DNA from: Octopus vulgaris | Taxonomy: Eukaryota | Reading direction: 5' to 3' | NCBI GenBank assembly: GCA_951406725.2 | Contig: OX597838.1 | Span: forward strand, 8,246,001 to 8,310,000 | Length of the DNA stretch: 64,000 nt | In this document: piece after piece, positions 1,834-64,000 of the stretch | How positions within the stretch are numbered: the first letter of the stretch is position 1 | How the letters are laid out: every line of letters begins with the position of its first letter | Translations under genes and position numbers: made by a program | Notes under the pieces: generated by a model | Database searches by the model: none | The model's input: the letters and a program-made list of their open reading frames with translations, nothing else | Told to the model about the DNA's origin: nothing

Positions 1834-2558
1834 TGTATGTATGTATGTATGTATGTATGTATGTATGAAGAGATGAAACAGAATACATTTCTGTGTTGTT
1901 CCAGTGACAGAAGACCAGGAACATTTCTCAATAAATGATAGATGAGTTGAACCCTACTTATAGGGGTCATAGCCTTAATGCAGTGAGTATTGATCCCCAA
2001 AGAACAAGAGTCAAAGAGGTGTTCGCCATGATTATTGTTATGAAAGTCAGGGTCAGCGTGTATAAGAGGGCAATTACAGCTGCGGAGTGTATATAGGGGA
2101 ACGCTTTACAGATTGTTACACGATTGTGTGTGTATATAGATATATGTATGCATGTGCGCGTAGAAATGTAATTGCGTGCTTATAGGAATGCACGCATGCG
2201 TATATATATATGTGTGTGTGTGTGTGTGTTTGTGTGTGTAGCAGGCTAATGTCACAAACAGGCAGACGAAGGGTTAACTAGTCAGATTATAACGTATTTA
2301 TATATTCAAATTTGGAGTTAGATGATGTTCTACAATGCAAACGTTATCTGTGTCACATATTTAATATCATCGGGTTGTTAAACCCCTTTTTTGCTGCGAT
2401 GTCTTGTCGCAGCAAAGTCCTTTTAAAAACGTGTGTGTATGTGTGGATGTGTGTGGATGTGTGGATGTGTGTGGATGTGTGGATGTGTGTGTCTGTAATG
2501 TTGGCAAATGGAATAAGTATAAAAATGAACATCGTCTATTTAATTCAAAAAATTCTAC

Positions 2559-2649
2559 ATGTGGCTGAAGAGTGCTCTACATTTTAATAGTGATGTAATA
2601 CTTACATTCTTTAAATTAAATGAAGTAGCATGAAACGATTGTAGTACAC
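2559..2649 (+). ncRNA. Hammerhead ribozyme-like motif with long stem II (Penelope pLTR remnant, copy 1 of 3)
   Basis: gtgg-CTGAAGA-gtgctctac...gtagcat-GAAAC-gatt-GTA-gtacac; same island at 20259 (+) and 56190 (-). Confidence 0.6.
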
Positions 2650-2719
2650 TACCTTCGATATCCCTGTTGCTTATTTTGATTATATATATATATAGATAGA
2701 TAGGGAGATAGATAGACAA

Positions 2720-2784
2720 ATAGCCTCGAGCCAACCCTAGCCTTGTGAGTGGATTTGGTAGACGGAAACTGAAAGCAGCCCGTC

Positions 2785-2874
<90 letters not shown>

Positions 2875-3045
2875 GTCACCCGATCATCGCTTGACGACCG
2901 ATGTTAGTATGTTCAGGTCCCCTAATTTTGCGAGCGATAGAATAAGTACTAGGTGTAAAAAGAATAAGTCTTGGGGGTCTACTTGTTCGACTAAAGGCGG
3001 TGCTGCAGCATGGCCGCAGTCAAATGACTGAAACAGGTCAAAGGT
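2720..3045 (+). mobile_element. SINE family A, 5'-truncated, with internal (TA)n(TG)n
   Basis: ccttgtgagtggatttggtagacggaaactgaaag ... ggcggtgctgcagcatggccgcagtcaaatgactgaaac. Confidence 0.85.
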
Positions 3046-3413
3046 TAACAGAATGTACTCATGTTCTCAGTTCCGTGTGTGTGTGTGCGTGTGTGTGCAG
3101 AGGCAGTGCGAGAAAGAAAGCGATGTGTGTATATATATGTATATATAGAGAGAGACTATCTGTATATATGCACGTATGTACGTATGCGTGTAAGTGGAGG
3201 ATGGGTGTGTGTAAGTATAGATGTATGTATGTGTGATATACATATGCATGTTGGTATATTGGTATGTTTAGAGAAACGTAAGAAGTATAAGCTAAATACA
3301 GATATATATATATATATATATATATATCTTTTGTATATATGATATATATATATATATTTGTATCGCACCACTGTTTTAGAATTGTATTCTTCAGTGACAA
3401 TCTCCGGCTAGAT

Positions 3414-3480
<67 letters not shown>

Positions 3481-3765
3481 TAGATATAGATATAGATATA
3501 GATATAGATATATAGATAGATAGAGAGAGAGAAAGAGAGAGAGAAAGAGAGAGGAAGGGAGAGAGAGGGAGAGAGACAGTACTGCTATTTAGAAAGTTCA
3601 GCAGAGTGCGAAGTAATTCTATTTTTACGAGACGACTCTCGAAGCAAATAAAATTATGAATATTAGCGTTTCAATATTCCTTTTCTGGGAGCCGAACTCA
3701 CATCTGGAAATATGAGAGGTGCCCTAACATATATGTGTGTGTATGAGAGAAAGATTTTGATAGAT

Positions 3766-3902
<137 letters not shown>

Positions 3903-4270
3903 CATGTATCTAAATATACACAGTGTGAAACAGATTAATGTTATACAAATATATACAAATATATTGTATACACACGTATACACGCACGCACACGCACACT
4001 CACATATATGCGTGTGTATACGTATATAATTGGATAACATTTACCCCTCCATCACTGTATATGTGTGTGCGTGTGTACGTGTGTGTGTGTGTGTGTGTAC
4101 AGAAATGCAGAGATGCGACCTTGTGTCCTTTGAAGTTGTATTTCTGACATATCGAAATACCAATTGTGTTGTTGGCTTTCACAAATAAAACAATATTTAA
4201 TCGCCTGATACTTTTTTCGCACTTCATAAACGTATGCATACATATATGCATACATTTATATAATTACATC

Positions 4271-4301
<31 letters not shown>

Positions 4302-4429
4302 GTATGCATACGCAGATGCACACGTATGTGTTTACATATACATACACAGACACAGACACACACATATATATATATATATATATGTATGTATACGGTTATA
4401 TGTAATACATTATCACACGTACATATACA

Positions 4430-4525
<96 letters not shown>

Positions 4526-4671
4526 CAGATAGATAGATAGATTGATAGATAGATAGATACATACATACATACATACATATATACATACACACATACATAC
4601 ATACATACATACATACATACATACATACATACATACATACATACAATCATACATGCATATATACATACATA

Positions 4672-4830
4672 TACGAAGGGCTTCTGTCGGTTTCCGTCTA
4701 TCAAATCCACTCACAATGTTTTGGTCAGCTCTAGGCTGTAGCAGAAGACACTTGCCCAATGTGCCACGCTGTGGGACTGAACCCGGAACCATGTGGTTGG
4801 TAAGCAAACTTCTTACGGTTCAATCACACA
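4672..4830 (-). mobile_element. SINE family A 5' half
   Basis: Reverse complement of tRNA-like head and CORE-like (cttgcccaa) segment. Confidence 0.85.
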
Positions 4831-5368
4831 TACATATTTACATATTTATAGGTGCACGCATATATCTGTATGTGTAGACACAAGTACCCTGAAATATATC
4901 TGCATGGACGTACATACATAGATATGTGAGTGTACCTGCCCTCGACTTTTCTCACCCAGAATTGTTTTGAAGATTGACATGCTGTTATTTAAAGCTGTAA
5001 GTACTTCGAGATAAAAGTTCCAAAACACAAAAGAGGTTTCATATATCCGGGCGCACACATACATACAGATATACATAGACGCTTAAAACTGGTCTAAATG
5101 CATCACTTCATTTAAAATTTCAGCATTTAAATGTTTACAATATGCCAATATATCAAGTTTTTATATACATCGCACCTGCGCACGTGTGTGTGTAGATTGA
5201 TAGATATTTGTATGTATATCTATACAAATATATATATGTGTGTATATAACTGTGTGCATATATATATATACACATATATATATATATATATATTTTATAA
5301 AGGTACATACATTATGATGCCACCAAATGTATATATATGTATACACTAACTTGTACAGGACAAGAACG

Positions 5369-5442
<74 letters not shown>

Positions 5443-5570
5443 ATAGATAGATTTGCCAGGTGTGAATGTAAAATCCTAGAGCAGCTCCGTCCAACTCACT
5501 TCTTCACCAAAAACAGTATAGAAGGGAGACGCATGGCCCCTGTCTCTGGCTTCAGTAAACCAGTAAAGTA

Positions 5571-5676
<106 letters not shown>

Positions 5677-5771
5677 ATATGTATGCATGTATGTATATAC
5701 ACATAAGTAAAAAAGAAAAGGAGCTAATATATATATATAAATAAGGATACATACATACATACATACATACA

Positions 5772-5807
<36 letters not shown>

Positions 5808-5914
5808 TATAATTAATTAAGATTCAGTGGAATTAGGTAGTTGAGTTGAGGCATCAGGTCAGTCGGGTAATATCCGCACACCACGAATTGGGGTGGAGAT
5901 AAAATCAAAATAAC

Positions 5915-6010
5915 AGGAGTTGTGCATTGGGGTTGTAACTATACATTATAAAGCTTACTAAACTTTATTTGCTTCATAATGTATAGTTTCAATCCCAGTG
6001 CACAGCTCCT
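5915..6010 (+). other. 40-bp imperfect hairpin with 16-nt loop (pre-miRNA-like or MITE remnant)
   Basis: 5915-5954 pairs with 5971-6010: 35 Watson-Crick pairs, 3 G-U, 2 mismatches on + strand. Confidence 0.7.
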
Positions 6011-6699
6011 ATGTGTAACGTTTACCATTCCAGTAAGATCTGTTGTCCAGTAAGATCTGATTTAAACGTAAAAAAGTAACAGTTTTTTGAAAATCCTATT
6101 TACATAATTGTCGCGTATGTTTAGGTGAACTGTGATCAAAGTTTTGTCGTGTGGTTAACTGATCGATAATTAGAAGTCGTTGCATAAAATACTGCCCTTA
6201 AATCACTAATCAGGGCGATAGAATTATCCTTAACGTTGAAACCTGGTGGTCCCGTATGACCAATTGATGGTTGCCGTAAATGCAATGCTATTAAAGTATA
6301 TATCAATTATAATTTTTATGTGTGCAGGTCAGACACGCACACATGTATGACTGTGTGTGCGTGTTGGTGTGTGTGTGTATACACTCATATACGTAGATAG
6401 ATACATATATACCGCATATAGATGGACATATATATTATATACGTATATACATGTATAATATATACGTATATATATTATACATTATATACTGTAAACATAT
6501 ATACATATATATATTATACACACACATATATATTATATGCGTATATATGTACGTTAATGCATATACATGTATATTATATAGCTATAGGCTGCATATATAT
6601 ATCATATACATGCATATATATATACATATATTATATATATGTCTATATATATATATATATATACGCACATATATATTATCTATATATACAAATATATTA

Positions 6700-6730
<31 letters not shown>

Positions 6731-6732
6731 AT

Positions 6733-6791
<59 letters not shown>

Positions 6792-7049
6792 GACATGTAT
6801 ATTATATGTATACATCTAAATGCATTTTAATATGTATATATATATGTATATAAATACATGTATATATATATATTAATATATATATATATATATGTACATG
6901 CATTTGTATATGTATATTATATGCATATTATATATATATGTGTGTGTGCGTGCGTGCGTGTGTGTGTTTGTATATATGTGTATGTATATATGTATGCATG
7001 TGTATATATTACATACATATATAGACATATCTGTTTATCATATACATAT

Positions 7050-7106
<57 letters not shown>

Positions 7107-7119
7107 GAATGATAAATAA

Positions 7120-7151
<32 letters not shown>

Positions 7152-7152
7152 G

Positions 7153-7238
<86 letters not shown>

Positions 7239-8114
7239 TACGTATATATCGCTCTATCGAGCAGCTTGTAAGTTCTTTCTAAGTATTTCTAGCCTCGATG
7301 TCTTCGTTATGGCCTTCTCTTTCATAGGGACAGGGATTCATTCCATTTATCATCTCATTATGTTGAAGGTTTGCCAACCGGTTCCTTTCGACCTCTTCTT
7401 TAACACTCGACAACAGCAGATCACCACCTGTTCTCTGTGCTTCTTGAGAAGGGTTTGAAGCAGCCAACCCTATGCTTTCCGGATTCTAAAATCACACCAT
7501 TTCTTTCCTGGATTTACACTTTTCGTATGTGCTCCTGCATGTTGAAGTGCCTGGATTCCTTAGCACGATTCTTTCTATGATGTGCGAAATCTGAAGCAAA
7601 GTTAAAGACATTTCTCTAAACTGTGGGTTTCTTAAAATGACAGTGTGAGAAGAAAATCTCTTCATGCCTGTCTATTCAAGGGTACCGTCCTACATGCACC
7701 CGTGTATGCGTGGCACTTGTGGACTTCAAACATTCACACACACACACATATATATATATTCTTTTATCCTTTTATTCTTTTATTCGTTTCAGTCATTTGA
7801 CTACAGCCATGGTGGAGCACCCAGGACTTATTGTTTGTAAGACTGGTACTTTTCCTATCGGCCACTTTTACAAGAAGACACAAGGGAACGAAAAGTGTCA
7901 CCGAAGAGGTCGCAGACGTGCGACGAAAGATTTCCGAACAATGGACAGGCATAACTTGACATAAAAATTCCGTTCATATATACACTCGATATATATATGT
8001 GTGTGTGTGTGTGTGTATGTATATATATATATATCTATATATATATACATAGACATGTATGTATATACATATGTTTGTGTATATATATATATGTATATAT
8101 ATGTATATATATAT

Positions 8115-8157
<43 letters not shown>

Positions 8158-8818
8158 TATAAACGCACATATAAATGCTTTATGCGTGTATGTATGTGTG
8201 TAAGTATTTGAAAGTTTAGGTGGAAATCTATATATACATACATATATATATATATATACATGCATACATACATACATACATATATATGTATGTATGCATG
8301 CATGTATGTATGTATGTGTGTATGAATGAATGCATGTTTGTTTGTATGTATGTATGTATAGAATATAGGAAATATGTACAAATCTGCAATAAACTACACA
8401 TTGACACCAAGTTAGTTTTGTGCCGCTCTTTTTGTAAGCCTCTCTGAGAAGGGGAGGGTTGCAACATATAAGATAACTATATACAATCTCACTGCAGACA
8501 AACGCTTCATTATTCACAAAATTTATATCAGCTTCACCCGAAAAGAGAAAAAAAAGAAAACCAGCGCCGGCAAAATTGCATAATTATATAATGCGTGTGT
8601 GTGTATGTCCGTGTGTGTATATATATGTTTACATTAGCATATAGACGTAAATATATGTATATATATATATTAGTGTGTGTTTTTGCATATATGTATGCAT
8701 GCCACCTATATACACAGCTCTGGCAATATCCATATATTTAGGTGTGTATGCATATATCTGGATACTAAGATGGCTGCACGTATGTTTTCTGCGTTGGTGC
8801 ATCTATCTGTAATGTGTG

Positions 8819-8925
<107 letters not shown>

Positions 8926-8936
8926 CATACATACAC

Positions 8937-8971
<35 letters not shown>

Positions 8972-9023
8972 CATATATATATATATAATTTATTTATTTA
9001 AAGGTCACAATACATGTATTAAA

Positions 9024-9668: not shown

Positions 9669-9888
9669 AGAGCGAGAGAGAGAGAGAGCTGTTGCTATCC
9701 AGAGGACCCTAAAGTTAGGTAAGACCATGTAAATGCTACGGAAGGACCGCCGTTAAACTCACGGTTCGATAATAGTATGAGTGAGGTGTCTAACGCGGGT
9801 CGTGTGTGAGTGTGTATAGGTTAAATATAATTAAACAACAAAGCCAAAGCAGTGTGATATTTCTAGGATATTTTTAAAGAGTAAGGTA

Positions 9889-9936
9889 GTCTTACAGCTG
9901 TTTCGGGAAGATAAAGCATATCCCATCACCAGAGAC
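9889..9936 (-). ncRNA. Minimal type-I hammerhead motif, core variant CTGGTGA (probably inactive)
   Basis: Minus strand gtct-CTGGTGA-tgggatatgctttatcttccc-GAAAC-agct-GTA-agac; same family as 59667. Confidence 0.7.
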
Positions 9937-9983
9937 GATATGAGAAAGATAAATAGAAGCACATAGTGGAGTTCAAACATACA

Positions 9984-10025
<42 letters not shown>

Positions 10026-20258: not shown

Positions 20259-20346
20259 ATGGCTGAAGATTGCTCTACAATTTAAAACTGATGTAATACT
20301 TACAGTGTTTAATAAAATGAAGTAGCATGAAACGATTGTACTACAC
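20259..20346 (+). ncRNA. Hammerhead-like motif with long stem II (copy 2 of 3)
   Basis: atgg-CTGAAGA-ttgctctac...gtagcat-GAAAC-gatt-GTA-ctacac; island continues to about 20378. Confidence 0.6.
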
Positions 20347-20389
20347 TACCTTGGATATCCTTGTTGCTTATTTTGATTAATAATAGATA

Positions 20390-30380: not shown

Positions 30381-30435
30381 TGACGAAATGCCGGAGCAGG
30401 TTTCTGCCCCGACATCCGAAACTCGGAGTTTTATT
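30381..30435 (+). ncRNA. 5'-clipped hammerhead motif (same family as 43966)
   Basis: (TA)n-TGACGA-aatgccggagcaggtttctgccccgacatcc-GAAA-ctcggag-TT-ttatt; C3 and the stem I 5' strand are missing. Confidence 0.6.
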
Positions 30436-30475
30436 ATGGCAACCGAATAATTGTCACTTATAATTTTTACGGATA

Positions 30476-33346: not shown

Positions 33347-35470
33347 ATAATAATCACGATGGCCACTCCCATCGATTTTGGCACACAAGTGTTTGAAGGA
33401 ACGGATTTAAAAAAGTAGGAAGTTGTGTTTATTGAGTCCAAGTATGGATTTTGCTATGATTTTACAATGGCGACCGTGACGACCTTGATTTTGTCTGGTA
33501 TTGGACAGATGCGTCCGCTGATTGCCGGATAAAGTTTCTTTTATTCTCCTGTTTTATTCCAATCTAAGGGGAATAAGTTTCCCAAAATGTTACATTAAGC
33601 TGTTAGCGATCTTAGTGATTGTTTCAATTTATTCTCACCCCTTAGTAGGGATCTTCCTTTACCACGGAGCCCCTCTACTTGTTGGCCATACAAAACAATC
33701 ATCGGAATGCAATCTTTTCGCATTCAAACAACATATCCAGCCCGTCTACACTGAACTTTCGACTGTATGCTTTCAATACTGGAGATCTATCTCATTTATT
33801 AAAATGTTGGCATCGGATATCTTATCTTGCCATTTTATGTTGCAGATATTGCGCAGACACCACATGTGAACGATTCCAAGTGCCTTTAAATGTATTTAGT
33901 AGGAACTCCATGCTTCTGTTCCATACAAAAGTATATTCAAACTACAAAATTTGTCTGAAAACTACTATTTCCAAATCTCACAACGAGAGATATTCACCGA
34001 CAGTACATTGGAGTAAAGATTTTGGCCAACATAACATGGCAGTCCTGGTATAGGACGAATGTTGCTGTAATTTAGCCCGAGGAGACATCGTCTCCAGCTG
34101 GCTATAAGACACGATCTGTGTTCTTATATTTTTGAACAAGGGAATCTAGCATCCCCACTCAGCTCAAAAAAATATCTGCGTATCGCGATTTTCTGGTTAT
34201 TCTGTACTGATGAAGGGAAATAACCCTGTTTCCCCTTCATATTCTAAAGTTTGGATTTTAGATGTGCTTCAAAATTTTGTATCATTTCGGGTTTTTTTGC
34301 TTGTTTTTTTTTTTAATGCAGACACATTTATTCCCGAAGGAATATTGGATCTTAGTCGTTTCTTGATATATGGTTTAAAAACAAAAAAAAAAGCTTTCTT
34401 GCGAACTTTTCTCTATTCCGAGGAACACTCGCAAGTTTGTGAGCTCTGATTAAACCTCAATGCAATCCTTGCTCTTTACTTATGACAGTCAGCCTGTGCC
34501 AATTCCCATATCGAGGATGCTTCCGGATGTTTTTATATCTATCTGCATGCTGAAACTCTGCGTTTGCAATTGTTAAATGAAATTGTTGGCAAAAAGACAA
34601 CAGTCGTAAACCATTTCCATCCGTTTTTCCTTTTCCAAGCTTTCCTGTTACTTTTGTCAACACACTGTATGCTTCTTACTTATTCTGGCATTAAGATCCA
34701 CCATTAATACGATTTTGTTATGATACCGAGTTTTACTGATAACTATTTGCAATTTAAAGTAGACAATGTTATATTCTTGCCCAGACGTTGACAAAGTAGG
34801 TACATATGCACTGAAAATGTGCACAAATGAAGAATTACCTATGGGTAGGCGAAAGGTCACGAGAAGCTCATCAGCAACTTCAGGTGACGGATGGCAGCTT
34901 ACGAAGTAAAGTCGATTTAATGGCAAATCCAACACCAGGAATTCTTGGTTCCCCTGCCAGCTTTCCACTCCAAGAAAACAAATGTGTAATCACTCCAAAC
35001 TTCTAATTCACCAGGATCAGCAAGCTTGGTTCCTCTTAGAGTAACAATATCAATATTGTATGAGCCGATTACCTGCAATTAATGCTGCTTTTCCTTCTAG
35101 ACTGTCTTTGTAGTTTCGCAAAGTTCTTACATTCCAACAACCAAAGATAATGTTTCTCTTCTTTTCTTTCTATCTTTAATCTCGATTGCAATAAACTGGA
35201 TGGCCAGACATTTGCAGTTTATAGCAATCTTTTTGAAGACAGGAATTTTTCCTTTTTTTTTTAGTGTTCTTTTTCTCCGAAATCAGAGAAGCAGTGTTAC
35301 ATAGGACTGCTTGCCTAATTAAAGGAGAAGACGAATGAAGCAGGTGCTTTTGGATTCTACAGGGACACGGGCCTCATCCTCTTTGCTTTATGCATGTCCA
35401 ACTCTGGCTAGATCCACAATGACTTTCTTTTAAGGGGCACGGTCTTGTGTTACCCGTCATACTCTCTCGA
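33347..35470 (-). mobile_element. Decayed RTE-clade LINE: APE endonuclease and C-terminal region present, RT core missing
   Basis: Minus-strand remnants GCWNVRTL, SAYVPT, DLNAR, NGLRLLSFC, KHPR..WH (34450-35150); CLRNICNIKWQDKI, RAGYVV*M...LYG...GR and KSILGLNKH (33430-33890); many stops and frameshifts. Confidence 0.85.
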
Positions 35471-43965: not shown

Positions 43966-44026
43966 GATAAAACTCCGAGTTTCGGATTTCGGGGCGGAAA
44001 CTCACGCCGGCATCTCTTCAGTTATC
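43966..44026 (-). ncRNA. Type-I hammerhead ribozyme motif, intact core
   Basis: Minus strand gataa-CTGAAGA-gatgccggcgtgagtttccgccccgaaatcc-GAAA-ctc-g-gag-TT-ttatc; 5-bp stem I, GUU site. Confidence 0.7.
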
Positions 44027-44305
44027 GCGCCATCATCATATATATATATATATCTTATTTAATTTGCTTTGCAGGAGCACCTGTTTTATCGAAAGCGTAT
44101 CTTGTTAAATACTCGAAATACCAGAGTAGAAAGACAGCCAACAACTGATGAAGGGTCGTGTTTTTGTGTTGTTTGTCTTGTTTTCCTTTTGTGCCTTTCG
44201 TTGTTCCAAAAAATAGTTTCATATTCCATCTACTCGTACTTTGTATTTTCTGTTGTACACGCTTCGTGACGTCCTGTGCTCAGATATGCATATATATATA
44301 TATAC

Positions 44306-44724: not shown

Positions 44725-45222
44725 GATTGTCGTTCGCTGAAGACCACCCTGGGGCATTCGGTTCATGACCGTCTATTGATACTTAATACCTTGTTAGATT
44801 TCATCAATTGCCCCTACAAACTTCCTAGATACCCACTAACACTAATTCTCCTTCAAATATTTCTAGGGCTCTTATTATTACCCTAATGTTGATTCGCAAG
44901 GATCTTTGTGTTTGGTTTTTAGCTCCAGGCGAAGTTGAATGAGTTTTGTTCTGTTTTCGTTTTCGCTTTTCCGTGTTTTTTTTTTCATTCTCTTCGTGAA
45001 GCTTCAATTTCTTTTGCAAATTTAAACAAGAATTATTCTTCGCCTGGCATTCAGGTACCGTTGGCCAATGGTGAAGATGTTGATCTTTAACATATATTTT
45101 ATGTAAGGAAAAACGTAAAGAAGCATGAAACAATTCAACGTAACGTAGCGAGAATATATATTCATACATATATATATATATTTATGTGTGTGTGTGTGTG
45201 TGTGTGTATGTATATGTATATA

Positions 45223-45314
<92 letters not shown>

Positions 45315-45427
45315 ATTTATATATAAAGTTAATCCAAACATGAAAACACAAAGAGAAAACAACAACGCGAGGACATGGAACAAATATAGTATTATTGGAC
45401 GCTCAGGAAGGAAGGGAAGAAGGAGGA

Positions 45428-45460
45428 TCTAACGTTTCGAGCGGAGCTTTTCGTCAGAAA
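45428..45460 (-). ncRNA. Minimal hammerhead motif in Penelope pLTR-like island (about 45325-45525)
   Basis: Minus strand ttt-CTGACGA-aaagctccgctc-GAAACGTT-aga; palindromic aacgtt. Confidence 0.65.
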
Positions 45461-45787
45461 CATAGGAAAAGGAAAGATCCAGATGAGGGAAGACGGAGAG
45501 GAAAAAATCGCCAACGGTACACACGATGTATATATACAGCAATAAGAAAATGGAGGGGATTAAGAGGTGGTATTCTTCAACGTTTAAACATTATATCATG
45601 TCCATTTATTTATGTAAAAGAAAACAATTATAACAATATACATACATGTATAACATATTATGCTTTACATATATAAAAATACCAGTAATTATTGAAATAT
45701 ATAACGTAGAAGATAGAAAGTACAATATATTTACATATATATGTATGTATATATATATATAAGTATATATATATATGTATATATGTG

Positions 45788-47736: not shown

Positions 47737-48472
47737 CGTGACCTGAACAATAAGTATCTGGACTGTCGCCATAGTAACGAAGCTTAAGCATGTAGAATGA
47801 AACCGCTTGGCACAGGCCTCTACTGGCCTCTACTGTACATTTACTGTAGGTCCTTGGCCTCTACTGTACATTTACACTAACTTTTAACGTTCTAGCAGTG
47901 CTTGGAAGGAAGGTGTGTAGCGTGTGTTCGTCGCATTGACCATGACAGAGAAAGCTGAGTAGAGAATCTACATCAAATCTTGCCAAAAGCTTGGCGATAC
48001 CTGCTCAGAGCTCTATCAATAGTTTTCAAAATGTTTTCATCGTTCTCGACCCAATCAAGGAAATCTTGCGCAACTGAAACCCGAGTGTCTTTCTGATCAG
48101 CTGAAAATAGTTTTGGCACAAACTTGACAGACACGCGTCTCATACCCAAATCTGCTGTGGTAATGGATTTAACTGAACCAAAACTAAGCTGCACATCCTC
48201 TGATAAATTACAGATGCTGATTCGACGGTTTGCCCTCACAGCTGCACGCGCATCTACTCTTTTACTCTTTTACTTGTTTCAGTCATTTGACTGCGGCCAT
48301 GCTGGAGCACCACCTTTAATCAAGCAACTCGACCCCGGGACTTAGTCTTTGTAAGCCCAGTACTTATTCTATCGGTCTCTTTTGCCAAACCGCTAAGTTA
48401 CGGGGACATAAACACACCAGCATCGGTTGTCAAGCAATGCTAGGGGGGCAAACACAAACACACAAATACACA

Positions 48473-48522
<50 letters not shown>

Positions 48523-48932
48523 CATACGACAGGCGTCTTTCAGTTTCCGTCTACCAAATCCACTCACAAGGCTTTGGTCGGCCCGAGGCTGTAGTAGAAG
48601 ACACTCGCCCAAGGTGCCACGCAGTGGGACTGAACCCGGAACCATGTGGTTGGTAAGCAAGCTACTTACCGCACAGCCACTCCTACGCCTGCGATGTTTT
48701 TTTTTTCAATTCTGCTTGATGCATGTTTCCCAGAACGTTCGTCAATAACGACACTTTTTCGGTCGTCATGGAAAGGTCTGAACCACTTGAACACATGTGT
48801 GTGGTTCATACACTCCTCTCCATACACTTTCTGCCACTTTGCGTAGGCCTCTGAGCAGGTATCGCCATGACAACTTTCTCTGTCATGGTTAAGGCGACAA
48901 TCACACGTCACACACCTTCCTTCGAAGCACTG
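47737..48932. mobile_element. Rearranged mariner remnant: two 5' ends in inverted orientation, transposase pseudogene
   Basis: TA|cgtgacctgaacaataagtatctggact TIR-like; + strand MTEKAE*RIYIKSCQKLGDTCSE at 47942; - strand GDTCSEAY...VFKWF...ERSG and RRISI...LGMRRVSVKFVPKLFS. Confidence 0.85.
48256..48690 (-). mobile_element. Full-length SINE family A inserted in the mariner ORF
   Basis: Splits the transposase reading NIA|D.RAAVR. Confidence 0.92.
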
Positions 48933-49060
48933 CCGTAAACAGCGGATGATCCGGTCCTTGACTGAAGATTAAAGGCTTCGAATGACCTGTCCGTGTTTTT
49001 TGTATCGTCTTCTGGATGGTTTGCGTTCTTGTCCCATTTTGTATATATATATACATGAAG

Positions 49061-56192: not shown

Positions 56193-56281
56193 TCAAAATG
56201 AGCAACAAGGATTTCCAAGGTAGTGTAGTACAATTGTTTTATGCTACTTCATTTTATTAAACACTGTAAGTATTACATCAG
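56190..56281 (-). mobile_element. Third, truncated copy of the long-stem-II hammerhead island
   Basis: Reverse complement of about 20288-20378; stem III is the perfect palindrome acaattgt; abuts a SINE A tail at 56282-56380. Confidence 0.75.
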
Positions 56282-56561: not shown

Positions 56562-58021
56562 TATCTTTATCTTTCTTTATCTTTATCTAGTTTCAGCTCA
56601 CGAGCTGTGGCCATGCTGGGGCACCACAATTCGGTGTTGCTACATGATTTTACTTCACGAATGCTTTTTAGCAATTGCCATTTGGTGCATGAGAGAGTTC
56701 GATGCAGCTGCTCTCATCTGCACCTCCTGCCGTGAAGTTGGTTCATCTGGGACACCTGACAAGAAGAGATCCAGTTTTATTTTAAAGACATCTACATCCA
56801 CCCCATGCAGGTCTCTCAGGTTCTTCGGGAGGATATTGAAGAGCTGTGGGCCTCTGAAGCCCAGGCTATCACAGTATCTTGTCCTACATCGTGATGGCAA
56901 ACTTGGAGTCCTTGGCACTACGCAGTTGCGCCCAGTTCTGGCATTTGTGTAACTCTCGATGCCAAAGTTTGGGACAAGTCCTTCAAGGATCTTCCAGATG
57001 TATATTATGGCATATCTTTCTCGCCTACGCTCTAATGAATAGAGTCTTAATCTCTTGAGTCTTTCCCAGTAGCTTATATGCTGCACAGAGGCTATCTTCT
57101 TCGTGTAGCTTCGTTGGATCGCCTCAAGTTTTGTAATTAACTTGACACTGGATGGTGACCATAGCTGAGAGCAATAGTCAAAGTGACTTAGGACAAATGT
57201 CCTCCAGAGGACCATCATGGTTTCCTGGTCTCTTGTTCTAAAGGTTCTACTAATCCATCCGGTCAGCCGCCTACATTTCATTGCCAATTTAGCAATATGC
57301 ACATGAAAGGTTGCATCATCACTCATGTAAATACCGAGGTCTCGCACTGATTGTGCCCCTGGGATTGCAATCCCTCCAGGTCCAGTGTATTTATTGGGTA
57401 TTGCATTTAGTTTTGCATGCTGATAGCATAAAGCTTGAAACTTTTCAGCATTGAACTGCATGCTATTCTTTTCAGCCCACTTGTATATTTTTTCCAGCTC
57501 ACATTGCAGGTGCTTAGTGTCTTCAGGGTTCTGTATAGCCTGTGAAACTTTTGTATCATCTGCATAACTTGTGACCGTGGCTCTCTGCGTGGCTGAGGGC
57601 ATGTCTGAGAGAGCCATTATGAACAGTAGTGGTCTCAAAACAGTGTTCTGTGGAACACCGCTCGCTATTTGCGTGTTAGTGGAAGTGGCCCCATTGGCTA
57701 CTACCACCTGATTCTATCCTTCAGAAAGTCATGAAGCCATTCTCCCAATTTTCCAACTATGCCAAGATCACGCAGTTTTTGACATATCATTCCATGATCG
57801 ACTTTATCAAAGGCCTTTGCAAAGTCGAGATATATGACTTCCACATTTGAGTGGTTGAGCAGTCGTTTCAGCACCCAGTCATAGTGTTGTAGGAGCTGAG
57901 TTAAGCAGCTTCTTCCTTGTCGGAAACCATGTTGGGTGTCAGGCAGCAAGTTATTTTCTTCAAGGAAGGTGATTAGTTTCCTTCTGACTATTCGTTCCAT
58001 GACCTTGCTGATGTGTGATGT
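56562..58021 (-). mobile_element. 5'-truncated CR1-type (CR1/L2 group) LINE, reverse transcriptase pseudogene
   Basis: TSHISKVMER, QHGFR.GRSC, YLDFAKAFDKVDH, GVPQNTVLRPLLF, YADDT, YWERLKRLRLYSLERRRER; single frameshift near 57710; stop at 56655; short 3' UTR; (GATAAA)n tail. Confidence 0.92.
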
Positions 58022-58022
58022 A

Positions 58023-58405
58023 TCTCTCTCTATATAAACGGCAGTTTGTCTGTGCGTGTTTCTGTGTGTCTGTTTGCTTGTACCCTCACCCTGACCACGG
58101 CTTTCAACCGATTCTGATGAAACTTGACACACACATAGCCCAATGTCATAATTCAAAACTAACGCAGCGAAAATTTTGAAAAGTTCCCCCAGTTCGGAAA
58201 AAAATCAATAAATTCGACATGGGGTCGAGAATCAGAAACACAAACCGCAAACTGTCTAGGGGACGCAACTCTACCTTTTTTAACTAAAAAAAAAATTTAC
58301 CATAATTTTTTTCCATTTTTTTGCCAGTTTTTGGCTATAACTCTCTAAAAATGCTTTATAGTTATTTCCCTTACAAACCTGAGCAACGCCGGGCGATACT
58401 GCTAG
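58023..58405 (+). mobile_element. Non-autonomous Helitron
   Basis: A|TC 5' end (tctctctctatataaa), subterminal hairpin cctgagcaacgccggg, CTAG|T 3' end, no TSD. Confidence 0.8.
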
Positions 58406-58558: not shown

Positions 58559-58884
58559 TACATACATACAGGTGTGTGTGTATGTATATATATATATATA
58601 TATATATATGTCATAAGTAACAGAGAAATAGATTGCGGAAATTTTATTTAACAAATCCGAATTTCTGGACAAATTGGAAGACTCTTTCATTGATTTATGT
58701 TGTTGTTCTCATTGTCTTCCATACTTTCTATAAAATTTTTTTAAATATTTACTTATATCTTCAAATTTCTAAGTTTTAAAAATTTCATATCTTTCATATT
58801 TTATTGTTAATACGTATCAATCCCTATATTTCATAAATATTGTCTCTAAATACTTTTAATTCTATTTTGTTATTGTTATTATTG

Positions 58885-58943
<59 letters not shown>

Positions 58944-58949
58944 TTATTA

Positions 58950-59046
<97 letters not shown>

Positions 59047-59052
59047 TTATTA

Positions 59053-59094
<42 letters not shown>

Positions 59095-59666
59095 ATTATT
59101 ATCATTATTATTATTATCTTTTTACTCTATATTTATGATCTTTTATTTTCTATATTTCTAGTAATAAATACCTCTTTTCTTTTATTGTACAAATAATATC
59201 AACTAGTTACATTTTAATTATATTACTAAAATTCCTTTCAATTTATGAGAAAATCCTCTAATTAATTTATATCCATTTTATCATTATCGGCTTCAATAAT
59301 CTTTTAAAATTTTCATCTTACGTGTCTATAATGTTACGTCGAGAATTTAGTATTTTACAAAGACTCTCTTTCACCTGAGAACGTAGCGTAAATTCTCCAT
59401 TATTTTGAAAGATTTTTTTTTTTTTGTATTTCACATTAATGCAGTCATGTAAGTAATTTACTCATTATTAAATATAATAATATAAATTATTTACATGCTT
59501 TTACGTGAAACAATTCGTCATGAAGTTGAATTTTCTGGCCGTTAAATAGAATTTCATCAAACTAGTTCTCTGACATCCTTGATTTATACATTCCTTATTT
59601 ATTCATTCTTTATCTGTATTTCATATCTTCTCTATAATAACAATTACTTAAACATTTTCTCGCACC

Positions 59667-59714
59667 GTCTCTGATGAAGGGACATATAAAATATCCCGGA
59701 AACAGCTGTAAGAC
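59667..59714 (+). ncRNA. Minimal type-I hammerhead ribozyme, intact core
   Basis: gtct-CTGATGA-agggacatataaaatatcccg-GAAAC-agct-GTA-agac: stem I gtct/agac, stem II ggga/tccc, palindromic stem III acagctgt, GUA site. Confidence 0.8.
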
Positions 59715-59775
59715 CTCTTTATAAATGTTCTGAAAACTATTCAAAACCTTAGATTTTTTTTATCTCATTCTGTTA

Positions 59776-59859
<84 letters not shown>

Positions 59860-63011: not shown

Positions 63012-63590
63012 TGAAGGGCGTTCAAAAAGTATCCGATTTTATTTTCTCCCGCTAAAACTAATGCCGTGTTGACAAAGTTCTTTGGACAAGAGGTCACACT
63101 AACCTTCCTGCACATGCGTGAAAATTTTCGTGCCTGTAGGTCGCGTTAGTTCCTGGCTGTTATAGGTGAGTAGGTCGCGCTCGTCGTGTTTTCGTTTTCA
63201 CGTAAGATGACCGGACGTATCAACCAGAAACATTGCATCAAGTTTTGCCAAAAGTCTGTTGATACCCAAACTCAAGCAAACTGGGACATTTAGCAGAACT
63301 TTGGGATGATGCCATGAGTAAAACTCAGATCAAGGAGTGGTACGACCGCTTCACACATGTTGCACCTCAGTGGAGAGCATAGGACACTGAGGCCCTCCAG
63401 GAGCCGAAACAGGGAGCCGATTGAGAAAGGTCGACAAATTGTCATGGAAGACCGTCGACTAAAGATCCAGGAAATTGCTTACAAAGTAGGAATGAGCACA
63501 GGTTCAGTGCTTTCCATTTTAATGGAGGATTTGTGCATGTGGAGAACGTCAGCAGAAAGATAAAGTCCGATACTTTTTGAACACAGCTTG
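63012..63590 (+). mobile_element. Internally deleted mariner with both TIRs and TA TSD
   Basis: TA|tgaagggcgttcaaaaagtatccgattttat ... ataaagtccgatactttttgaacacagcttg|TA; QKHCIKFCQK, MSKTQIKEWYDRF, RPSRSR...EDRRLKIQEIA. Confidence 0.85.
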
Positions 63591-63592
63591 TA

Positions 63593-63812
63593 ATCCAAGC
63601 TTTCCAGGTCAAGGACAACACACCTCTTGTTCAACAGGCTACCTGCTCTCCTGACTTGGCATTGTGGGACCTCTGGTCCTTCACCAAACTGAAACTACAC
63701 TGAAAGGGAAGCCAATTTGTGTTGCAAGAGGAAATTATAAGGAAAGCAACAGTGGAGCTCCATAGTATTCCAGAGAAGGCATTCCAGAGCTGTTACCAAC
63801 AGTGGCAGAACT
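63593..63812 (+). pseudogene. Mariner transposase C-terminal fragment
   Basis: CSPDLALWDLWSFTKLK (YSPDLAP.D motif), IPEKAFQSCYQQWQNCW. Confidence 0.85.
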
Positions 63813-64000
63813 GCTGGCAGAATCGTTAGCCCGCCGGGCGAGATGCTTAGCGGTATTTCGTCCGTCTTTCCGTTCTGAGTTCAAATTCCGCCGAGGTTGA
63901 CTTTACCTTTCATCCTTTCGGGGTCGATAAATTAAGTACCAGTTACGCACTGGGGTCGATCTATTCGACTTAGATCCTTTGTCTGTCCTTGTTTGTCCTC
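63813..64000 (+). mobile_element. SINE family B (B1 tail), runs off the window
   Basis: gctggcagaatcgttagc...catcctttcggggtcgataaattaagtaccag. Confidence 0.9.

Follow-up and report, generated by a model that had tools for sequence, protein, structure and literature searches.

The closest described systems are the minimal hammerhead ribozymes of Penelope-like elements (PLEs), which were surveyed by Cervera and de la Pena (2014, PMC4209133). These motifs share a type I topology and the consensus hammerhead core, and an extra nucleotide after A9 together with a G10.1-C11.1 pair is given as their hallmark. Helix I comprises 4-5 bp, helix II is long (7-8 bp), positions 15.2-16.2 and loop III form a palindrome, and the 5' flank is T-rich. 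The survey names 40 species, including two molluscs (Lottia and Crassostrea) and no cephalopod. Approximately 2,000 to 9,000 such motifs per genome were reported for many animals, mostly single, dispersed and belonging to several families per genome; most were elements without an ORF, probably derived from truncated PLEs. Monomers did not cleave, and dimers or trimers showed low cleavage.

In another work, the hammerhead of the Anolis Poseidon element PAc, a minimal motif in the pseudo-LTR of an intact element, was described to cleave only with the element's protein; it was dispensable for insertion in vitro, and no RNA-seq reads ended at its site in the reported data (PMC11167929). An insertion bias towards microsatellites has also been described for PLEs (PMC8557442). 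Perreault et al. (2011, PMC3088659) found 10.1-11.1 to be the most conserved pair after 15.1-16.1 and discarded matches that were mispaired there, the discards lying mainly among repeated elements, while active variants exist with U-U at 10.1-11.1 or with a U inserted in GAAA (U13a). The non-LTR retrozyme hammerheads of newt, axolotl and others have a helix III that is unstable in the monomer and rescued by the dimer, and they reside in tandem repeats of 150-450 bp with canonical helix sizes (PMC7229834). For the giant squid, the genome paper lists 235 Rfam hammerhead_1 loci (PMC6962438).

We analyzed a 64-kb stretch of Octopus vulgaris DNA (the window), in which a motif on the plus strand had been put forward as the best intact minimal hammerhead, with a core-mutant sibling on the minus strand. 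Read from the sequence, the motif is a 48-mer (59667-59714, plus strand) with a type I hammerhead-like layout, and its parts are the following.

59667-59670 (+), 5' arm of helix I, 4 bp with 59711-59714, identical in the sibling (sequence)
59671-59677 (+), core C3-U4-G5-A6-N7-G8-A9, matching the consensus (sequence)
59678 (+), additional A between A9 and G10.1, with U at this place in the sibling (MAFFT alignment; PMC4209133)
59679-59697 (+), helix II, 4 bp between 59679-59682 and 59694-59697 (RNAfold of 59678-59698, -4.4 kcal/mol)
59683/59693 (+), C-A mismatch in the remainder of helix II, then 2 pairs and a 5-nt loop (RNAfold)
59698 (+), unpaired G between helix II and G12 (MAFFT, pair count, descriptor scans)
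59699-59702 (+), core G12-A13-A14-A15.1 (sequence)
59702-59709 (+), 8-nt palindrome, helix III of 2 bp in the monomer and of 8 bp between molecules in the dimer (pair probabilities)
59708-59710 (+), GUA triplet, predicted scissile bond 59710/59711 if active (sequence and hammerhead numbering)
59711-59714 (+), 3' arm of helix I (sequence)

The coordinates, core letters, 4-bp stem I, GUA triplet and palindrome of the original prediction were all borne out, and its expected cut after A59710 agrees with hammerhead numbering. All 13 classic core letters are present, including U16.1 and H17, and the pairs 1.1-2.1 (U-A) and 15.1-16.1 (A-U) adjoin the core. With the surveyed PLE motifs, the locus has in common the extra nucleotide after A9, a helix I within the 4-5 bp range, the long helix II, the palindromic 15.2-16.2/loop III region and the T-rich 5' flank, and the window resembles their dispersed occurrence in several families. 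Small palindromic loops III are likewise seen in the PLE variants of Drosophila willistoni, Aedes and Saccoglossus (PMC4209133, Fig. S3); the 4-nt loop III of one D. willistoni motif is identical, with A17 as here, and the row Saccoglossus(2) also ends in A17. However, helix II closes directly on G12 in these variants, unlike here, and the sequences are otherwise unrelated. The locus further differs from the surveyed motifs in its unpaired G before G12 and in that neither a PLE ORF nor a pseudo-LTR partner was found.

The Rfam hammerhead families contain the same core letters, yet they gave no match, neither across the whole window at the gathering score nor at the two loci with E-values up to 10, where only unrelated weak matches were returned. 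Together with a folding z-score of -1.04, which is not significant, and the lack of covariation, this could speak for a chance match to a short consensus, but such a coincidence is scarcely credible. A relaxed descriptor matched once in the window and in 0 of 300 order-3 Markov simulations of its 37.5 kb of non-repetitive sequence (both strands), and a loose scan returned four full motifs, belonging to three families, where the null model gave 0.18 on average and none of the 300 simulations reached four. In prokaryotic genomes, the core-letter pattern was matched 10 times, with approximately 6 matches expected by chance, and a stem I of at least 3 bp accompanied none of the 10; thus, the core letters alone do not bring the stems with them. 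The sibling, which has a 16-nt exact block and flanks in common with the motif, and the null model together refute the chance reading.

No match to the motif was found in a plasmid collection, and a phage collection returned one weak AT-rich match outside of it. The GAAA region resembles what we presume to be a common sequencing primer site; vector contamination was rejected, as the sibling has the same block and flanks. The common 16-mer was found in no paper of the full-text literature searched, in which we also found no description of the repeat family (subscription papers and repeat databases lay outside the scope) and no paper titled on octopus and hammerhead ribozymes.

The sibling lies 49.7 kb away on the opposite strand and, as predicted, carries A6G, the same stems I and III and a different loop II. 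The features needed for the comparison are the following.

9889-9936 (-), sibling motif, stems I and III as in the plus-strand motif, core change A6G at 9929, additional U at 9925
59656-59762 (+), extent of homology with the sibling, comprising the motif, approximately 10 nt upstream and 48 nt downstream (about 110 nt)
59779-59854 (no strand), (TA)n tract bounding the remnant downstream
9987-10022 (no strand), (TA)n tract near the sibling (sequence)

Both motifs are 48 nt long, 37 of the 48 letters are identical, and the 8-nt palindrome is perfect in each. Self-BLAST aligned 59656-59735 with 9860-9947 at 72% identity over 88 nt (E 1.6e-4). The alignment score of the downstream flank was reached by 13 of 2000 shuffles, that of the upstream flank by 968 of 2000, so that the latter is not significant beyond approximately 10 nt. 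No third family member was detected in the window, as a profile built from the two copies matched only those two at E below 0.09.

The identity is unevenly distributed: the core and stems I and III agree at 26 of 27 positions, the stretch between A9 and G12 at 11 of 21 (Fisher p = 4e-4, for regions picked after viewing the alignment). Such a concentration in the core and these stems is what selection during the mobile period of the element lineages would be expected to leave, and the pattern fits two subfamilies that would have diverged under ribozyme selection before each decayed in place. The earlier view that structure is conserved while the loop diverges therefore holds for the sequence but not for compensatory change, which was seen at 0 of 10 pairs between the two copies. 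Activity of either genomic copy does not follow from this pattern. The sibling departs from the core consensus at A6 and, by analogy, is probably impaired as well: a mutational scan found low activity for single changes in the CUGA turn (PMC9901934), and with A6C, cleavage in Mg2+ drops strongly, while A6 variants can prefer Mn2+ (PMC7151607); a value for A6G itself was not found in the full-text literature searched. The proposed pair of an active and an inactive copy thus turns into a comparison of lesion with lesion.

With regard to the 59667-59714 copy, the lesion concerns the junction between helix II and the core. Both copies have 21 nt between A9 and G12, and no indel separates them. The junction of the sibling is normal, with the G10.1-C11.1 pair adjoining G12. 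At 59667-59714, the same stretch reads A, then a GGGA/UCCC helix, then G. Without a bulge, 10.1-11.1 would be an A-G mismatch (59678/59698), and reading A59678 as the extra nucleotide typical of PLE motifs leaves G59698 without a partner in front of G12. The MAFFT alignment is gap-free and places G59698 opposite the sibling's C11.1 (9905); by pair count, 2 of the 4 helix II pairs are broken in this register, and the helix therefore slips and leaves G59698 unpaired. A59678 facing G59698 would be a third purine-purine opposition beside G8-A13 and A9-G12, which, we presume, could stabilize an inactive ground-state fold. The second defect, C59683 (T in the sibling), breaks one pair, and helix II forms 6 of its 7 possible pairs. 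When the sibling's 5' arm is combined with the 3' arm of this copy, a perfect 7-bp helix II results, which is within the 7-8 bp given for PLE minimal motifs.

Because the pair 10.1-11.1 directly beside G12, present in the sibling, is absent here, we do not class this copy as an intact hammerhead but as a damaged derivative of the family motif, and a strict descriptor, which requires a helix II of 4 bp or more immediately beside G12, found 0 matches in the 64-kb window. The description as the best intact copy had to be given up in view of the unpaired G59698 at the C11.1 position and of C59683. From the sequence, G59698 appears to be the main lesion, with the limit that two copies do not allow a lesion to be separated from a subfamily trait at this position.

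If it were such a trait, G59698 would be fixed in an active cephalopod PLE subfamily whose helix II junction carries an additional purine on either side and which cleaves as a dimer or with the help of protein. We consider this unlikely. In its favor, the interval between A9 and G12 is exactly 21 nt in both copies, and once 7 bp of helix and a 5-nt loop are accounted for in the copy studied here, one nucleotide remains in front of G12; natural hammerheads tolerate some insertions as well as U-U at 10.1-11.1 (PMC3088659), while the Anolis motif is protein-assisted. By hand count of the machine-read Fig. S3 of PMC4209133, an extra A precedes the GAAA box in 1 of 56 motifs, although its row assignment is uncertain. 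Against such a trait, the same count found 10.1-11.1 paired in all 56 motifs (43 G-C, 8 G-U, 5 A-U or U-A) and directly beside GAAA in 55 of them. Furthermore, the sibling has a C at this position and a normal junction, all four full-length motifs in the window are defective, and the copy misfolds in the model. In the full-text literature searched, no cleavage rate was found for a G inserted or substituted at the 11.1 junction.

That the copy is intact in the animal, and that G59698 reflects a polymorphism or an error in sequencing or assembly, is very improbable. The nucleotide sits at the junction of a short C-run and a G-run, and the assembly is rich in repeats (40% masked). However, the second, independent defect C59683 and the 28% divergence from the sibling fit old decay, and even with a correct junction the motif would remain partnerless with a helix III of 2 bp.

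The consequences for folding were estimated with nearest-neighbor secondary-structure models, which contain neither tertiary contacts nor help by protein. In the monomer, the 2-bp helix III has a pair probability of approximately 0.015 and all three helices form jointly at approximately 2e-4, with similar values for the sibling. In the homodimer model, the palindromes of two strands pair at a probability of 0.93-1.0, which supports a dimer design; the retrozymes introduced above provide a parallel, as their unstable monomer helix III is rescued in the same way. In the homodimer of the 59667-59714 copy, however, a hairpin of 59667-59672 with 59678-59683 dominates (approximately 0.96) and occupies stem I and C3-U4, C59683 providing its closing pair. 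Helices I and II accordingly reach only 0.01-0.03, versus 0.3-0.5 in the sibling. The active dimer was calculated at -21.5 kcal/mol and the best dimer at -28.7 kcal/mol, a gap of 7.2 kcal/mol compared to 1.4 kcal/mol for the sibling. With 30-nt flanks, helix I was lost in both copies in the model.

The parent element was searched for in the surroundings. The window is AT-rich, 40% of it was masked as simple repeats, and it contains LINE and mariner remnants, while no recognizable host gene was found in the scanned parts. Upstream of the motif, 58640-59660 is approximately 1 kb of very AT-rich, non-repetitive DNA that is split by (ATT)n and is possibly the decayed body of the parent. Pfam searches of all six frames of 58600-59790 for PLE protein gave low-complexity matches only, phmmer with one minus frame gave 0 matches among 1.84 billion proteins, and a word search with one plus frame gave 0 of 112 candidates; the deep searches covered two of six frames in DNA that is AT-rich and full of stops. 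Frames beside the motif that resembled PLE protein ends by eye were supported by none of the three methods, and the ORF 44828-45151, used as bait for PLE proteins, yielded 0 of 53 candidates. Since these searches detected no remnant of a PLE protein next to the motif, the assignment to PLEs is based on the RNA architecture. The reading frames through the motif end after 16 codons here and after 31 codons in the sibling, whereas PAc is an intact element with an ORF that begins at stem II of its hammerhead. An ATG lies within the core of both copies in the same frame (59674-59676, plus strand; 9926-9924, minus strand).

A reverse transcriptase remnant at 56655-58204 (minus strand) is LINE-type, has a frameshift near 57710 and is truncated upstream; its best named relative, 62% identical, is from Argonauta hians, and from its motifs we take its clade to be CR1-like. 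It was rejected as the parent, being LINE-type, on the other strand and 1.5 kb away. Mariner-like transposase fragments were noted at 47976-48968 (minus strand) and 63318-63900 (plus strand), with a single weak match to the Mos1 HTH that falls below the curated cut-off (E 8e-5) and otherwise no match in Pfam. By eye, 34460-35078 (minus strand) resembles a decayed LINE endonuclease, and the two frames tested had no Pfam match.

The missing PLE ORF would also suit an origin from a non-autonomous non-LTR retrozyme or a SINE-like repeat, in which short tandem units give rise to circular RNA, and type I hammerhead retrozymes, often monomeric, occur in molluscs (PMC7229834; bioRxiv 10.64898/2026.07.22.740005). 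We regard this as improbable. Tandem units of 150-450 bp were not found, self-BLAST links the locus to the sibling alone, and the window holds no second copy on the same strand, so that the motif is a lone copy, unlike the tandem retrozymes. The shared sequence spans only about 110 nt, and the extra nucleotide and the 4-bp helix I are PLE-type, whereas the canonical retrozyme helix I has 6 bp (PMC4209133). A second motif in pseudo-LTR spacing (approximately 3 kb) was not found either; with the other copy on the opposite strand and no third copy in the window, no transcript can carry two sense copies.

Taken together, the motif is likely a lone, decayed PLE-type minimal type I hammerhead, a 5'-truncated remnant among microsatellites with little or no cleavage. 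Judging from published relatives, two motif copies on one tandem pseudo-LTR transcript of the parent element would have swapped strands, with their palindromes pairing into an 8-bp helix III, and the RNA would have been cut slowly behind the GUA triplet, probably assisted by the element's protein; PAc illustrates how the parent motif may have functioned. The present copy would later have lost the C11.1 junction (G59698) and gained C59683, which favors the competing hairpin, and it lacks a partner on the same strand. Owing to the junction defect, the predicted misfolding and the missing partner, its cleavage is most likely negligible.

What stands of the original prediction is a motif that resembles a type I minimal hammerhead, together with its self-complementary helix III and the existence of a diverged sibling. 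Its proposed refutation, absent cleavage as monomer or dimer, would be a weak one, because published PLE motifs cleave poorly (PMC4209133) or need protein (PMC11167929), and absent RNA-seq ends at the site would be uninformative, because the Anolis PLE hammerhead shows none in the reported data (PMC11167929). As it stands, the copy matters little, being ordinary repeat debris of a kind that is found by the thousands in animal genomes. It has modest value as a handle on cephalopod PLEs, which lie outside the species surveyed in PMC4209133 and were missed by Rfam here. If, on the other hand, G59698 were fixed and compatible with cleavage, the known catalytic core would be widened by a natural variant outside the published minimal-hammerhead consensus. 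Standard descriptors and Rfam would miss such a variant, which might be a ribozyme that is tuned down or switched by protein, and it would bear on why PLE hammerheads persist despite very low activity.

All four full-length motifs in the window carry a visible defect and a fifth is truncated; the defect in every full-length motif points to general decay. The second family is represented at 43966-44026 (minus strand) by a 5-bp helix I, a consensus core, a long damaged helix II and a helix III formed by a 9-nt odd palindrome, and by a copy at 30382-30448 (plus strand), 85% identical over 67 nt, whose 5' end has given way to a (TA)n tract. The third family, at 45427-45461 (minus strand), has the shortest PLE-type helix III (A-U and C-G without a loop); its A9 is followed by an additional A, and 10.1-11.1 is mismatched (A-C). 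In half motifs at 44145-44151 and 34207-34223 (both plus strand), A and GGG follow the 5' core as in the motif at 59667-59714, but a GAAA box within range is missing; the latter contains a hairpin of 3 bp and reaches only E = 1 with the family profile. Finally, a dispersed repeat at 2568-2678, 20266-20375 and 56201-56280, with copies 88-90% identical, starts with the hammerhead 5' core letters and has no hammerhead structure.
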